Source of the DNA: Bacteroidales bacterium
GTDB lineage: Bacteria; Bacteroidota; Bacteroidia; Bacteroidales; DTU049
Assembly: GCA_012520175.1 (NCBI GenBank)
Contig: JAAYOU010000065.1
Location: 7,895 to 71,894, forward strand
Direction: 5' to 3'
Length of the DNA stretch: 64,000 bases
The position numbers and the translations under genes are program-made. Position 1 is the first letter of the stretch. Every line of letters starts with the position of its first letter. A model generated the notes under the pieces. The model saw only the letters and a program-made list of their open reading frames with translations. It was not told the DNA's origin and did no database searches. Of the stretch, positions 23,721 to 51,228 are shown piece after piece.

Positions 23721-23835
23721 AAAAAAATTTTTTTTTGACAGTTATTGCTTATATTAGACGTATAAACTTTAAAAAAGTTTATTTTTGTAAAAAACTAATA
23801 CTCAAAGATTTACAAATATATTAAATTTTTTTAAT

Positions 23836-23873
23836 AAAAAAACACTTCAAATAAAATTTTTTACTTGAAGTGT
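23836..23873 (-). terminator. Rho-independent terminator downstream of the M23 peptidase gene
   Basis: acacttcaa...ttgaagtgt is a perfect 9-bp stem. On the minus strand it is followed by a U-run. Confidence 0.6.
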
Positions 23874-23910
23874 TGCAACTTATTGATAATCAACAACATA
23901 CAGTGGCAAC

Positions 23911-45115: not shown

Positions 45116-45170
45116 ATTTTTCGTCGGAGAAGCAAAAGTACAAAAAAAATATTTATCTTTGGTTATTATT

Positions 45171-47376: not shown

Positions 47377-47397
47377 AAAGCCTTATCTTTGCAACAT

Positions 47398-48820: not shown

Positions 48821-49272
48821 ACTTCTTTATTTTTCGAGTCAATAATTATAGTTACGGGTCCGTCGTTAACAAGGCTTATTTCCATGTGCTCACCAAAAGC
48901 GCCTTTTGCGATTTTTTTGTCAAATAATTCTTCGATTTTATCAGCAACTTTATTAACCATTATATTTGCCATTTGTGGCTCCATTGCAAAAACATAAGAA
49001 GGTCTGTTTCCTTTTTTAGTATAAGCAAGCAATGTGAATTGGCTAACAAGCATTATTTCGCCGCTAATTTGCGAAACGTTTAAATTCATCACTCCATTTT
49101 CATCATCAAAAATGCGAAGCTGCAAAAGTTTTTTTACGATGTAATCCATATCTTCATCGGTGTCGCTTTCATGAACGCCCAAAAGCACAAGCATTCCATA
49201 ATTAATGGACGACAGCAACTTATTATTCACAAAAACCTCTGCTTTTTTTACACGCTGAATAACGACTTTCAT
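48817..49272 (-). CDS. dtd: D-aminoacyl-tRNA deacylase
   Basis: 151 aa. MKVVIQRVKKA, VSQFTL and NDGPVTI motifs. 4-bp overlaps on both sides. Confidence 0.9.
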   Translation of the reverse strand: MKVVIQRVKKAEVFVNNKLLSSINYGMLVLLGVHESDTDEDMDYIVKKLLQLRIFDDENGVMNLNVSQISGEIMLVSQFTLLAYTKKGNRPSYVFAMEPQMANIMVNKVADKIEELFDKKIAKGAFGEHMEISLVNDGPVTIIIDSKNKEV

Positions 49273-50435
49273 CTTTTTTTCTTGCCTTTTTCTTTTGATT
49301 TAATTTCCTTTACTTTTTCATATATTTTTAGAGAATCGCAGAAAGCGGTATCTGGTTGTAATGAAAAATTTAAGTAAACAGGATTGTGGTCTGAATTTTC
49401 AAAATGCTTATTAATTGTTCTTACCTCATTAACAGTGATATTTGGCGAACACAAGAAATAATCAAGCACTGTTGTTGTGGTAACTCCTTTTTCATATTTT
49501 GTGTTCACATCTCTGTTTGTTGGAGTTTTTGGGTCGTAATACCATTTCCAGCCCTTTGGTAAGTAATCATTTTCAATTGCTGGCTCTATTTCTCTAACAT
49601 AATCTCCTGTGTTTATTTTTGTTTTGTCAAAGCCGAGGGGATTTTGGTTCCAGTCGCCGCCAACAACAACATAGTCGCCATTTTCGTAGAAATTAAGCAA
49701 ATAACTTCTTAAAAAAATCATTTCTGCAATTCTAATATCGCCAGCATCGTCAAATGCTGAGTTATGTGTGTTTATGATGTATAGCGACTTGTGATTATCT
49801 AAATTAAATTTTTCAATGATAAAGCATCTGTCAAGAAAAAATACTTTCATGGGCCAAGCGTAGCCAAATGGGAACGAAATTCTTTTTGCGTATTCGGGAA
49901 TATATCTAGAAAAAGACATCATTCCAGAATGTACTTTCGCCGTAGGATTAAATAATGGGAATGGCACAAAAGGCACATTATAGTTAATTGCTGTTACATG
50001 GCTAAATGTAGGCAAAGCTCCAGCAAGGCTACTGTCTTGCCTTGTATAAAACGACCTTTTTGAATTTATATCAACTTCTTGGAGCAAAACAAAGTCCACA
50101 GTATCCATTTTGCCTAATTCATTAAAAATAGATTTTAAATATTCCTTGTATTGTTCCTTATCTGGACGCATTTTTTTCCCGCCTTCATAAAAGAAATCTT
50201 CGTGTTTGCCAAGAGCTGAGTAGCCAATGTTCCATGAAATTATAGAAATGCTTTTATCACTAAAAAACCATGCATTACGTCCTTTTTTTATCTCCAAATC
50301 TTCGCTAATTGCTGGGTTATAATCTTTTTTGCTGTTTATTGCAATTATAACAATAAAATACAGCAATATCATTGACACAATAATAATTAAAATCTTAAAA
50401 AATATTTTTAAAAATCTAAATTTTCTTTTGCTCAT
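49269..50435 (-). CDS. Membrane-anchored endonuclease/exonuclease/phosphatase (EEP) family protein
   Basis: 388 aa. N-terminal TM segment. SWNIGY, LLQEVD, GDWN and SDHNPV blocks of the EEP fold. Confidence 0.7.
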   Translation of the reverse strand: MSKRKFRFLKIFFKILIIIVSMILLYFIVIIAINSKKDYNPAISEDLEIKKGRNAWFFSDKSISIISWNIGYSALGKHEDFFYEGGKKMRPDKEQYKEYLKSIFNELGKMDTVDFVLLQEVDINSKRSFYTRQDSSLAGALPTFSHVTAINYNVPFVPFPLFNPTAKVHSGMMSFSRYIPEYAKRISFPFGYAWPMKVFFLDRCFIIEKFNLDNHKSLYIINTHNSAFDDAGDIRIAEMIFLRSYLLNFYENGDYVVVGGDWNQNPLGFDKTKINTGDYVREIEPAIENDYLPKGWKWYYDPKTPTNRDVNTKYEKGVTTTTVLDYFLCSPNITVNEVRTINKHFENSDHNPVYLNFSLQPDTAFCDSLKIYEKVKEIKSKEKGKKKR

Positions 50436-50559
50436 AATTCTGAAGTGATAATTTTTGTAAATATACGTTTTTTCTAAAATTTATGAATAAAAAATGTACT
50501 TTTCTTTTTCATTGCAAAAAAAAAGTACCAAAAGAAAAGCTATTCGCGGGAGAATTTAC

Positions 50560-51025
50560 CTGCGAAACAGCAAGGCATGGCTGGCGAAGTTTTGCTACTA
50601 CTTGTTGTGTGCTTGTGTGTGGCGGCGACTATTTCGCTTGGGCGCAGCGACGTAAAACCCTGATAATCAGACAGTTATAAATTGCCGCCGCTTTGCCTGT
50701 CTCGGCTGCTTGCTTTGCTTGCCTGTGTCTACGTAAGTCGCTGATACTCAGACAGTTACTGGTGGTGGGTTTGCGTGGGTGCGGTCGCTTTTTTGGCTGT
50801 GGCGGCGCAACTCGTTGATAATCAGCGGGTTGCGAGCCGTCGACCCCGCCTTTATAAAACATTGATAATCAAATGGCTGTGCGAATGCAGTAGTGTACAA
50901 ACCTGACAGGTTTCTAAAACCTGTTAGGTTTAAAGTAGTCTGATAATCATGCAGTTGTAATAATATGGTCGCGCCGCCGTAAAGTATTGATAAGCAATAG
51001 GTTACAGGTGGCAAACAGGTTTTTT
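50560..51025 (+). repeat. G+C-rich non-coding island with six copies of a ~26-nt motif (core TGATAATCA); candidate structured ncRNA or protein-binding array of unknown type
   Basis: Motif copies at 50651-50676, 50732-50757, 50806-50831, 50853-50878, 50930-50956 and 50978-51003, all in the same orientation. Flanking GC stems are present. A T6 run lies at 51020-51025. See findings. Confidence 0.6.
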
Positions 51026-51107
51026 GCTGAAAAACTTTCCTTTTAATAATTTTTTTAAATCAACAATGTTTAAAAATATCTGTAAATTTGTAGGTTAAAA
51101 AGCTTTT

Positions 51108-51194
51108 GGAGAGATGCCAGAGTGGTTGAATGGGGCGGTCTCGAAAACCGTTGACCTCTTACGGGGTCCCAGGGTTCGAATCCCTGTCTCTCCG
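51108..51194 (+). tRNA. tRNA-Ser (anticodon CGA), type II
   Basis: GGAGAGA-TG-CCA...TGG-...GCGGT-CTCGAAA-ACCGT-long variable arm-CAGGG-TTCGAAT-CCCTG-TCTCTCC-G. Hand-folded. Confidence 0.9.
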
Positions 51195-51228
51195 CAAAAA
51201 AGATAGCTTAGATTAGAATATAAATTTT

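Follow-up and report, generated by a model that had tools for sequence, protein, structure and literature searches.

In an uncultured Bacteroidales bacterium, a G+C-rich, non-coding island lies upstream of a tRNA-Ser gene. Our analysis indicates that this island, a strain-variable cluster of six copies of a 27-bp palindrome, is most likely an array of DNA sites to which a protein binds rather than a new RNA, because the palindrome mirrors the binding consensus of the DNA-bending protein IHF. The analysis is centred on a 64-kb stretch of DNA (hereafter the window), and all coordinates are positions within it. As to the nature of the island as a whole, we lean towards a DNA-level mosaic of short palindromic repeats that resembles a BIME and consists of sites for an architectural protein, rather than an RNA gene. 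An initial annotation had proposed three readings, namely a structured non-coding RNA, an iteron-like array bound by a dimeric protein and decayed foreign DNA next to a tRNA gene. Among these, sites for a dimeric DNA-binding protein are now favoured, while their classification as iterons is abandoned, the sites being mirror-symmetric, of the IHF type and present in hundreds of viral contigs.

The island is set apart by its composition. In 100-nt windows, its G+C content reaches 0.48-0.61 across positions 50550-50900, as opposed to 0.16-0.24 in the flanks, and the GC-richest 200-nt windows in all 64 kb are those at 50541-50721 (0.51-0.55; mean of the entire window 0.324, standard deviation 0.053). 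The compositional jump described in the initial annotation is thus real, with 0.55 against a mean of 0.32 in the windowed GC check. The open reading frames in this region are short and mutually overlapping, as had been recognized before, and none of the five has a Pfam match, which argues against a degraded gene. The genes on either side are housekeeping genes, and blastn detected no second copy of the island elsewhere in the window. A 28-nt inverted repeat that brackets the island was judged to be a product of chance, because it is made of A/T runs and missing from the other haplotype. The positions of all relevant features are given in Table 1.

Table 1. Features of the island, its surroundings and the solitary site (window coordinates).
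Feature	Position	Strand	Basis or remark
G+C-rich non-coding island, mosaic of palindromic sites and GC-rich spacers	50546..51025	.	GC content, no Pfam match, no Rfam match
Haplotype-specific left segment	50493..50585	.	alignment, upstream ends of L085, L002 and L003
Site c1, GTAAAACCCTGATAATCAGACAGTTAT	50652..50678	.	both halves exact WATCARnnnnTTR
Site c2, GTAAGTCGCTGATACTCAGACAGTTAC	50733..50759	.	left half exact IHF consensus, right half with 1 mismatch
Site c3, GCAACTCGTTGATAATCAGCGGGTTGC	50807..50833	.	both halves exact
Spacer of the c3-c4 pair, 70% GC	50834..50853	.	centres 47 bp apart; layout as in phage pairs
Site c4, ATAAAACATTGATAATCAAATGGCTGT	50854..50880	.	left half exact, right half CTG for TTR
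Tandem 15-bp palindromes, AAACCTGACAGGTTT and AAACCTGTTAGGTTT	50899..50931	.	repeat analysis (D5, I6)
Site c5	50931..50958 (core 50941-50949)	.	left arm displaced by a base insertion
Spacer of the c5-c6 pair, ending in GGTCGCGCCGCC	50959..50978	.	centres 47 bp apart
Site c6, GTAAAGTATTGATAAGCAATAGGTTAC	50979..51005	.	left half exact, core with one substitution
T6 and subsequent A/T tracts, located between site c6 and the tRNA promoter	51020..51082	+	sequence
Predicted Bacteroidetes-type -7 promoter box of tRNA-Ser, TAAATTTG (TAnnTTTG)	51083..51090	+	
tRNA-Ser(CGA), gene downstream of the array	51108..51195	+	tRNA prediction, Rfam
Solitary 27-bp site, GCAACTTATTGATAATCAACAACATAC	23875..23901	.	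3 mismatches, chance expectation 0.00

All six copies of the palindromic core that had been reported for the island were recovered, with starts at 50661, 50742, 50816, 50863, 50941 and 50988 and spacings of 81, 74, 47, 78 and 47 nt. Four have the exact sequence TGATAATCA and two a single substitution, in agreement with the earlier description, and four of the six exact cores in the whole window fall inside 300 nt of the island. The motif originally delineated proved to be one instance of a site family with the 27-bp palindromic consensus GTAACTnnYTGATWATCARnnAGTTAC. At three or fewer mismatches, this extended consensus has four matches in the 64-kb window, with 0.00 expected. A census of the window yielded one cluster, one clear solitary site (at 23875), which is intergenic and adjoins a terminator-like hairpin, and two weak ones. 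The concern raised in the initial annotation that the motif might be a common repeat element is therefore justified in part, as the sites are common in phage contigs and, in the window, occur once more outside the island, at 23875-23901.

Each half of the 27-mer fits the E. coli IHF consensus WATCARnnnnTTR (bioRxiv 10.1101/382655) at all nine specified positions, with the two halves mirrored about the central W, so that the site can be written as YAA-nnnn-YTGATWATCAR-nnnn-TTR, its halves sharing the W. Exact matches to WATCARnnnnTTR accumulate in the island, with 7 of the 22 in the window located between 50653 and 50992 (340 bp), compared with an expectation of about 0.08 from the background rate. 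We compiled a half-site profile from 417 sites that were chosen by their left half only, with the right half scored thereafter. The right half (n = 417) then displays W in 89%, A in 66%, T in 84%, C in 81%, A in 92% and R in 94% of the sites, followed, after four positions of low information, by T in 88%, T in 89% and R in 90%. Information content amounts to 0.23-0.56 bits at positions d6-d9, compared with 0.69-1.33 bits at d2-d5 and 0.79-1.05 bits at d10-d12, which places the trough exactly on the four n positions of the consensus. Within this four-bp gap, a preference of the form nnAG is left over, and the four positions lean towards CTCG/CGAG, which is not something that IHF would need. Free variation of the central 3-5 bp weakens the WAT part of the consensus in phage contigs that are richer in GC. 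Among the island sites, the right half of c4 reads CTG in the strain analysed here and TTG in strain L084, and that of c5 has a T where R is expected and a G in strain L084.

In the complex of IHF with the H' site, the DNA is kinked at two points 9 bp apart, with WATCAR lying between the kinks and TTR in the flank (bioRxiv 10.1101/382655). Placing the mirror axis of the 27-mer on W defines a 9-bp core, TGATWATCA, flanked by a Y-to-T and an A-to-R step; its length corresponds to the distance between two IHF-type kinks, an agreement that concerns consistency with the published geometry only. Thus, the half-site match, the information trough and the length of the inter-kink core are shared with E. 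coli IHF sites such as phage lambda H', and so is the placement of sites at origins, beside iterons and ahead of promoters. However, E. coli IHF is a heterodimer whose sites carry the consensus on one half and often an A-tract on the other, whereas the sites described here are palindromic and carry it on both halves. Moreover, the consensus was defined in E. coli, while the Bacteroidales protein would be an HU/IHF-like homologue, and none of 5,426 E. coli genomes contains the 27-bp palindrome. IHF/HU-type proteins outside the proteobacteria are usually regarded as non-specific; Bacteroides possesses a site-specific member of the IHF/HU (DNABII) family, BHFa. A search for an HU/IHF gene was negative in the 64-kb window, a small sample that says little, and in about 1 Mb of viral loci. 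Likenesses to the familiar Fur-box, FNR-box, dif, Ter and attC motifs were also considered and dropped, because spacing or outer positions do not fit.

The initial annotation had placed the cores in loops of 17-19 nt closed by compensating flanks, and it had envisaged an RNA that acts as a sponge or through kissing loops. Neither idea is supported by closer analysis, although the strand asymmetry of the fold z-scores lends some residual backing to an RNA. The GTAA...TTAC flanks represent the outer arms of the 27-bp palindrome, and the local stems proposed at the time are not used by the minimum-free-energy (MFE) fold of the whole region. Several features could nevertheless suggest a structured plus-strand RNA whose repeat hairpins bind or titrate a protein, perhaps in a manner similar to E. 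coli REP325/naRNA4 with HU: a GC-rich island in a genome with 32% GC is typical of structured RNA genes, the plus strand has an MFE of -181 kcal/mol (z = -4.85 relative to shuffled sequences; minus strand, z = -2.13), its fold keeps pairing at 14 of 20 strain substitutions (minus strand, 5 of 13), a T6 run does indeed lie near the 3' end at 51020-51025, as had been stated, and hairpins with CTTCGG loops occur among the phage spacers. REP325, a transcribed cluster of six repeats that has been linked to HU, provides a precedent (PMC4550694). We still consider such an RNA quite improbable. The value of 14 out of 20 is barely above the 50% expected for transitions, compensatory double changes are missing, and the T6 run is separated by 10 nt from the last stem; neither a terminator nor a convincing promoter was found in the island. 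As in the initial annotation, which had failed to match the region to an RNA family, Rfam returned only tRNAs at gathering score; for the island itself, there was nothing of note up to E = 10 (best hit ALIL, with 20.1 bits against a gathering score of 50), and no family was matched in eight related loci. In addition, the central W can be A or T on either strand in phage contigs, and the sites also occur as half-sites as well as beside iterons and DnaA boxes.

The variation within the site family bears directly on this issue. Across 313-322 family members, mirror covariation is absent at d9 and d13 (p = 0.063 and 0.81, respectively) and mirror association is weak at d6 and d7 (p = 3e-7 and 1e-3), a feature that IHF would likewise not require. 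At d9, G·G and C·C together account for 28% of the sites, and gene-oriented sites include 185 G·T versus 223 A·C combinations, revealing no excess of sense-strand G·U pairs. Since more than 300 sites from viral contigs show largely independent variation of one half relative to the other, and a sense-strand G·U excess is lacking, the sequence data point to a duplex site for a dimeric protein and not to a selected hairpin. The island does share with the sponge RNAs CsrB/RsmZ and CrcZ, and with REP325/naRNA4, the presence of many motif copies within a few hundred nucleotides. Unlike in these systems, however, the motif is a self-complementary duplex site rather than one displayed in a loop, with no Rfam match, covariation or strand bias.

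The 27-mer family is found in at least 120 viral loci. We detected 247 sites at four or fewer and 353 at six or fewer mismatches in 0.99 Mb of viral loci, as opposed to 0 and 4 in 0.33 Mb of shuffled control sequence, and the unfixed positions of the family are strongly non-random. In many phage contigs, the sites are arranged in pairs 41-58 bp apart, with peaks at 41-42, 45, 48, 50-51 and 58 bp. The spacers of these pairs have a G+C content of 70-100% (mean GC 0.67 versus a locus mean of 0.41), even in phage contigs with only 37-38% GC, and some of them form the CTTCGG-looped hairpins mentioned above. The GC-rich composition of the island is a trait of the DNA module here and not automatically a sign of structured RNA. 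In viral contigs, a short conserved module recurs in almost every intergenic region beside a promoter, with the order terminator, pair, A-tracts, -35/-10 and ORF in contigs L100, L199, L190, L148, L179 and L110; the T6 and A/T tracts that follow the last site of the island have a position similar to that of the A-tracts between the paired sites and the promoters in these phages. In settings typical of architectural proteins, the 27-mer also adjoins DnaA boxes in three loci (L237, L141 and L089) and lies beside iterons in the Hymenobacter plasmid pHsw3; at the origins of pHsw3 and L174, it accompanies other iterons and does not replace them. An association with tRNA genes was not apparent in viral loci, in which none of the 19 tRNAs has a site within 300 nt.

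Among cultured phages and plasmids, we found no match to the phage cassette, and the 27-mer itself gave only partial matches, in Azobacteroides phage ProJPt-Bp1, pHsw3, a Pseudoalteromonas plasmid and two Brevundimonas phages. Literature searches with the core and arm sequences returned only primers and unrelated matches. Repeated cassettes are known from phages, including the promoter-stem-loop cassettes of the T4 type and the stoperators of cluster A mycobacteriophages. Like these, the module described here is repeated at promoters in viral contigs, but it differs in sequence, consists of a paired palindrome with a GC-rich spacer, and has no match in sequence or literature searches. It is tempting to speculate, at the price of a scenario that we regard as unlikely, that paired mirror-symmetric IHF-type sites with a GC-rich spacer may constitute a previously undescribed regulatory module, located upstream of nearly every early promoter in many uncultured phages, probably with Bacteroidota-related hosts, and at plasmid and phage origins. 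This module would be read by a homodimeric, sequence-specific DNABII protein, and the chromosomal array of 6-8 sites may serve as a high-capacity sink or decoy that tunes the free pool of this protein or competes with incoming phages.

The island varies considerably between strains. An alignment with a sister strain revealed eight copies in place of six, an indel comprising a 66-nt unit and a replaced left end. Strains L084 and L085 have unrelated sequence in place of 50493..50585, with an extra site whose core is TGATAATTA, and contigs from other assemblies break in the area of this left segment, at about 50551 and 50649. Site c3 arose by recombination between 3a and 3b, which exist as two distinct sites in strain L084. 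The left two-thirds of the island are about 7% diverged between strains, whereas the neighbouring genes are 99.2% identical, and a comparison of two strains gave 12 substitutions in 162 nt of sites and 13 in 283 nt of spacers, indicating that the sites are not better conserved than the spacers. The island also contains the repeat families D1-D3, of which the 45-nt family D1 looks tandemly duplicated. Beyond the closest strains, an initial genome scan that used EEP peptides as queries identified no relative, and a profile scan yielded 80 related loci with protein identities of at most 62%, none of which has a cluster of cores or a tRNA-Ser gene upstream. Since neither the array nor the adjacent tRNA gene occurs in these relatives, any role of the array at the promoter must be dispensable.

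The two tandem palindromes of the AACCTG type that had been noticed in the initial annotation are present, at 50899-50913 and 50917-50931. They belong to a separate, widespread repeat family that is unrelated to the 27-mer and occurs in at least 120 metagenome loci; co-occurrence of the 15-bp palindrome with the 27-mer was not found elsewhere. Neither Rfam nor the literature searched contains the AAACCTGWCAGGTTT repeat, and a literature search by sequence gave only primers and unrelated matches.

A REP unit is an imperfect, GC-rich palindrome, 20-40 nt long, whose 5' end bears a conserved GTAG (or CGTC) tag, and in the BIME-1/RIP (RIB) elements of enterobacteria, REP palindromes flank an IHF site (PMC3333891). 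The island is comparable to BIME-1/RIP elements in that it forms an extragenic mosaic in which GC-rich segments alternate with an AT-rich IHF-type site, lies between transcription units and differs in copy number by locus and strain, as seen from its six versus eight units, the 66-nt indel and the replaced end. However, it contains no GTAG-tagged REP unit and no other repeated GC-rich or tagged palindrome family, there is only one cluster in 64 kb, and the conserved repeated unit is the IHF-type site, while the GC-rich parts are variable. This comparison raises the possibility that the island is a selfish or neutral pile-up of mobile palindromic modules, similar to BIME/REP elements or MITEs, which are useless to the host and bind protein only incidentally. 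Such an origin would account for the variable copy number, the exchange of the left approximately 100 nt for unrelated sequence, the divergence of the left two-thirds next to nearly identical genes, the tandem appearance of the 45-nt units, the absence of the array from the 80 related genomes, the lack of preferential conservation of the sites and the presence of a second, unrelated widespread repeat in the same spot. We regard it as conceivable, if on the unlikely side, given that most half-sites retain the key positions of the consensus and that the pair spacing and the position relative to the promoter repeat the systematic layout seen in phage contigs. Elements of the BIME/REP kind are characterized by more than 100 genomic copies and an associated gene for RAYT, a Y1 transposase; the ORF listing beside the island, moreover, shows no transposase or RAYT gene, and both the single cluster with few solitary copies in 64 kb and the lack of a GTAG-tagged GC palindrome family argue in the same direction.

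A different kind of foreign origin, related to the decayed foreign DNA of the initial annotation, would be a remnant of the control region (origin, packaging site or operator) of a phage, plasmid or integrative element that was left beside the tRNA gene. Viral contigs do carry the same sites and paired modules in abundance and have them at origin-like regions, the composition of the island is foreign to the host, and tRNA genes are common integration points. The island, however, is located 5' of the tRNA gene and not at its 3' end, its surroundings contain housekeeping genes and no integrase, rep gene, att duplication, DnaA box or iteron, and two exact-pattern scans of viral contigs yielded no match to its GC-rich spacers. 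Furthermore, GC-rich spacers characterize the module even in phage contigs with 37-38% GC, so the composition need not mean import, and we consider a remnant of this kind very unlikely. A function as a replication origin with iterons was rejected as well. Iterons are regular direct repeats of 17-22 bp that are accompanied by an AT-rich unwinding element, DnaA boxes and a rep gene, whereas the island has an irregular spacing of 47-81 bp, no DnaA box in the region 50300-51200 and no rep-like ORF.

Returning to an array of architectural-protein sites, its position relative to the tRNA-Ser gene deserves attention. A TAnnTTTG box, which we take to be a marker of Bacteroidetes promoters, lies 13-17 nt before the mature 5' end in all three tRNA genes of the window. 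The predicted tRNA-Ser box TAAATTTG is preceded by the centres of c6 and c5 at distances of 95 and 142 nt, respectively, which fall within the range of about 60-150 bp considered for architectural-protein sites upstream of a stable-RNA promoter, and the array as a whole spans approximately 100-430 bp upstream of this predicted promoter and lies at least about 230 bp upstream of the divergent EEP gene. In E. coli, rrn and tRNA promoters have upstream activating regions with Fis and IHF sites. The arrangement found here is similar in that an array of sites is followed by A/T tracts, with the proximal sites at about -104 and -151, but it differs in comprising 6-8 sites that extend out to about -430 and in that, of the three tRNA genes in the window, only tRNA-Ser is preceded by an array of this kind.

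The match to the consensus, the distribution of the family, the paired arrangement and the differences between strains are observed, while the nature of the protein and a possible influence on transcription are inferred. In the mechanism that we propose, a dimeric IHF/HU (DNABII) protein would bind to each of the sites and bend the DNA sharply, with the GC-rich spacers confining its binding to the sites. The array would then act as an upstream architectural element or insulator for the tRNA-Ser promoter or the divergent EEP gene. Recombination among its own repeats may have made the array grow and shrink, and a tandem pair of an unrelated palindrome has also become lodged in it.

Collectively, these findings carry a caution for genome scans, since an intergenic island that is rich in GC and folds well need not be a structured RNA, even where the genome is AT-rich, and they bring to light, with the AAACCTGWCAGGTTT repeat, a second uncatalogued and widespread repeat. 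They also point to a conserved module located upstream of promoters in a large set of uncultured phages. If the proposed reading is true, the 27-mer would represent a sharply defined sequence recognized by a protein of the IHF/HU type in bacteria other than proteobacteria.

Windowed GC profiles (100 nt and 200 nt) bear out the abrupt compositional change between the EEP-family gene and tRNA-Ser described in the initial annotation. In 100-nt windows, the GC content rises from 0.16-0.24 to 0.48-0.61 across this interval, and the 200-nt windows at 50541-50721 (0.51-0.55) form the maximum of the whole 64 kb (mean 0.324, sd 0.053), in an uncultured Bacteroidales genome whose GC content over the window is 32%. 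ENA and Logan assemblies also contain the locus, a biogas fermenter being the source of one assembly, and the named relatives of the proteins flanking the G+C-rich island (50546-51025) are annotated as Bacteroidales. The six motif copies, with their cores and core spacings of 81, 74, 47, 78 and 47 nt, the T6 run and the two AACCTG palindromes were all recovered as described, and exact TGATAATCA occurs six times in the window, with four of these occurrences falling in a single 300-nt stretch. The ORFs of the island are indeed short and overlapping, and none has a Pfam match. Rfam at the gathering score reports only three tRNAs in the window, a search of the island up to E = 10 returned no credible match, and no terminator-like site was called within it.

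Coordinates of the features in and around the island
Feature	Position	Strand	Remark
EEP-family gene	49269-50435	minus	
27-bp sites, copies 1-6	50652, 50733, 50807, 50854, 50931, 50979		start positions
AAACCTGWCAGGTTT	50899-50931		two copies 3-4 nt apart
TAnnTTTG box	51083-51090		TAAATTTG
tRNA-Ser(CGA)	51108-51195		
TAnnTTTG box	47378-47385		
TAnnTTTG box	45132-45139	minus	
Solitary 27-bp site	23875-23901		intergenic
Terminator-like hairpin	23842-23874		
Weaker copy of the 27-bp site	23787-23813		

A search of IMG/VR with a degenerate form of the originally reported motif identified at least 120 loci, in which the positions left free in the search pattern are far from random. The family consensus is a 27-bp palindrome, GTAACTnnYTGATWATCARnnAGTTAC. 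With up to four and up to six mismatches, 247 and 353 sites, respectively, are found in 0.99 Mb of viral loci, compared with 0 and 4 in a shuffled control of 0.33 Mb. Within the window, the consensus with ≤3 mismatches retrieves copies 1-3 of the island and one solitary site (chance expectation 0.00), evidence that this genome uses the site outside the island as well. The solitary site has two minus-strand genes on either side and, together with a weaker copy, flanks a terminator-like hairpin. The palindrome is absent from 5,426 E. coli genomes. Among cultured records, good partial matches are limited to a Crassvirales phage of a Bacteroidales symbiont and the Hymenobacter plasmid pHsw3, shorter ones being found in one Pseudoalteromonas plasmid and two Brevundimonas phages, and a protein of one module-rich contig shows distant similarity to Salinibacter phage proteins. 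The host range of the module seems to lean towards Bacteroidota-related lineages.

When 417 sites were chosen on their left half alone, leaving the right half unconstrained, the latter read, from the centre outwards, W (89%), A (66%), T (84%), C (81%), A (92%) and R (94%), followed by four low-information positions and then T (88%), T (89%) and R (90%). At the sequence level, this profile is the IHF consensus, WATCARnnnnTTR (bioRxiv 10.1101/382655), mirrored about the W. IHF introduces two kinks into DNA, separated by 9 bp; WATCAR occupies the interval between them, one of the kinks falls within the consensus, and TTR is part of the flank (bioRxiv 10.1101/382655). Since the palindrome is centred on the W, its 9-bp core TGATWATCA would correspond to the inter-kink segment, a fit of geometry rather than of structure. 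WATCARnnnnTTR is matched exactly 22 times in the window; seven of these matches fall within 50653-50992, where the background rate predicts ~0.08. A site-specific host factor of the IHF/HU family, BHFa, is known in Bacteroides (PMC6606824).

The initial annotation had proposed that the core is displayed in a hairpin loop. Selected base pairing should cause mirrored positions to covary, but they mostly do not, and this model is not supported. At position d9, counted from the centre of the palindrome, a right-hand G follows a left-hand C in 61% and a left-hand G in 59% of sites (p = 0.063), and d13 shows no mirror association (p = 0.81); the weak associations at d6 (p = 3e-7) and d7 (p = 1e-3) could be a product of relatedness among copies. 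Orienting 236 sites by the direction of the local genes also revealed no excess of G·T over A·C (185 vs 223). At the centre of the palindrome, W can be A or T on either strand, half-sites are found in arrays (contig L226), and the site centre is free to vary in contigs of higher GC. We conclude, on sequence grounds, that the 27-bp unit is a putative duplex site for a dimeric protein. A structured RNA encoded on the plus strand, possibly partnered by an HU-like protein in the manner proposed for REP325/naRNA4 (PMC4550694), would be an improbable alternative. The plus strand folds better than dinucleotide shuffles (z = -4.85), and more so than the minus strand (z = -2.13). In the comparison with the sister strain L084, 14 of 20 paired-position substitutions in the plus-strand MFE fold keep the pair via G-U (minus strand, 5 of 13); this signal is weak, since most of the changes are transitions, half of which would keep pairs by chance. 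None of these 20 substitutions is compensatory.

In viral contigs, paired sites (L100, L105, L110, L148, L179, L186, L190, L199, L205 and others) have a spacing that is constant per contig (41-42, 45, 48, 50-51 or 58 bp) and spacers of 70-100% GC (mean 0.67 vs 0.41 for the loci). Here, a stop codon is followed by an intrinsic terminator, the pair, A-tracts, a -35/-10 promoter and a small ORF, and this terminator-pair-promoter cassette precedes almost every transcription unit. Cassettes are seen in L199 (1-2984), L100 (1-3126), L179, L110, L148, L186, L190 and L205, with spacers of 14-31 nt, some of them CTTCGG-looped hairpins, and a TTGaca-N17-TAtaaT-like promoter. In AT-rich contigs (L237, L141, L089, L174), clusters of sites lie in long non-coding regions beside DnaA boxes or other iterons, and those linked to DnaA boxes in viral contigs look like phage origin regions. 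Tandem DnaA boxes (TTATCCACA) adjoin the clusters in L237 (8986-9143), L141 (5514-5710) and L089 (5671-5720). On pHsw3 (L386, Hymenobacter swuensis, NZ_CP007146.1; 6050-6190), GTAACTCGTTGATTTTCAACG abuts four 19-bp iterons, CTGTGGAAGGTTATCCCGG, inside a 2.5-kb stretch without annotated genes that is probably the plasmid replication origin. In L224 (6100-6340), L232 and L265, several repeats have a GC hairpin inserted between the site halves (CGTAAGTGTCTGATAAT...GACCCGTAAAAACGACGGGGTG...CCTGATAATCAAGTAGTTAC).

In the island, copies 3 and 4 form a pair of the phage type, as do copies 5 and 6, each pair having a spacing of 47 bp and a GC-rich spacer. Beyond copy 6 come T/A tracts and then TAAATTTG, located 95 nt downstream from the centre of that copy. 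It is an instance of the TAnnTTTG box, which each of the three tRNA genes in the window has 13-17 nt ahead of its mature 5' end, as expected of Bacteroidetes-type promoters, and which we take to be the Bacteroidetes -7 promoter element. The layout of pair, A/T tracts, promoter and gene thus recurs at tRNA-Ser, and four further sites extend upstream of this pair to ~-430. High spacer GC is seen even in phage contigs of 37-38% GC; the GC richness of the island is likewise a trait of the module spacers and need not signify structured RNA or imported DNA. It is very improbable that the island is what remains of a control region from a phage or plasmid; no exact match to its spacers was found in viral contigs.

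Over 3.9 kb of neighbouring genes, the sister strain L084, a biogas fermenter contig, shares 99.2% identity with the window. Its left ~100 nt of the island (window 50493-50585) are swapped for unrelated sequence carrying one additional site copy (core TGATAATTA), and a 66-nt indel corresponds to another repeat unit, so that L084 has eight copies. In the window, copy 3 is a recombinant form of the two L084 copies 3a and 3b, and divergence is ~7% in 50586-50891 and ~1% in 50892-51030. The sites are no less substituted than the spacers, with 12 changes in 162 nt for the former and 13 in 283 nt for the latter. The left end exists in two haplotypes (window 50493-50585 vs L084/L085), and contigs from other samples (ends of L002, L003 and L085) stop at or inside the island (~50551, ~50649), which fits a coexistence of both haplotypes in those samples. 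A 28-nt inverted repeat on either side of the island (50518-50545/51029-51056; 79% complementary) probably arose by chance rather than representing mobile-element ends, given its A/T runs and the lack of the left arm in the other haplotype. Neither the core cluster nor tRNA-Ser was found upstream of the EEP homologue in 80 genomes (EEP identity ≤62%), and a protein database search gave no match between 99% and 63% identity, so that tracing by synteny stops at the species. Three related Bacteroidales genomes have in common AAAAYRCCCTGAWTATCAAAWATATAC upstream of the EEP gene (L051 112, L054 606, L021 653), which is core-like, lacks the outer arms and lies at differing offsets.

The AACCTG-type repeat, AAACCTGWCAGGTTT, recurs at ≥120 loci in metagenome contigs (L266-L385, e.g. 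L274, L315, L289). Among the matches listed, 11 kb can contain as many as five copies, and tandem arrays are also seen; the repeat is often nested in a MITE-like unit of ~110 nt that is bounded by inverted repeats. It has no match in Rfam or the literature searched and, among the matches listed, accompanies the 27-mer only in the window. With both elements present, the island combines two or more independent repeat families in one mosaic. It may conceivably be an accretion of mobile repeats without function, a rather unlikely reading for which the copy-number variation between strains speaks and against which the recurrent promoter layout speaks.

The best-supported interpretation is that the island represents a BIME-like extragenic mosaic built chiefly of mirror-symmetric IHF-type sites. 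Its nearest known analogue is enterobacterial BIME-1/RIP, in which GC-rich units likewise accompany an IHF site and copy number is variable (PMC3333891). However, the GTAG-tagged REP unit that defines BIME-1/RIP is missing, so that the island is not a member of this family. We infer that, most likely, a DNABII protein would bind the sites and bend them sharply, and that the array, in any effect it may have on transcription, would most likely serve the tRNA-Ser and/or EEP promoter as an architectural element or insulator located upstream.
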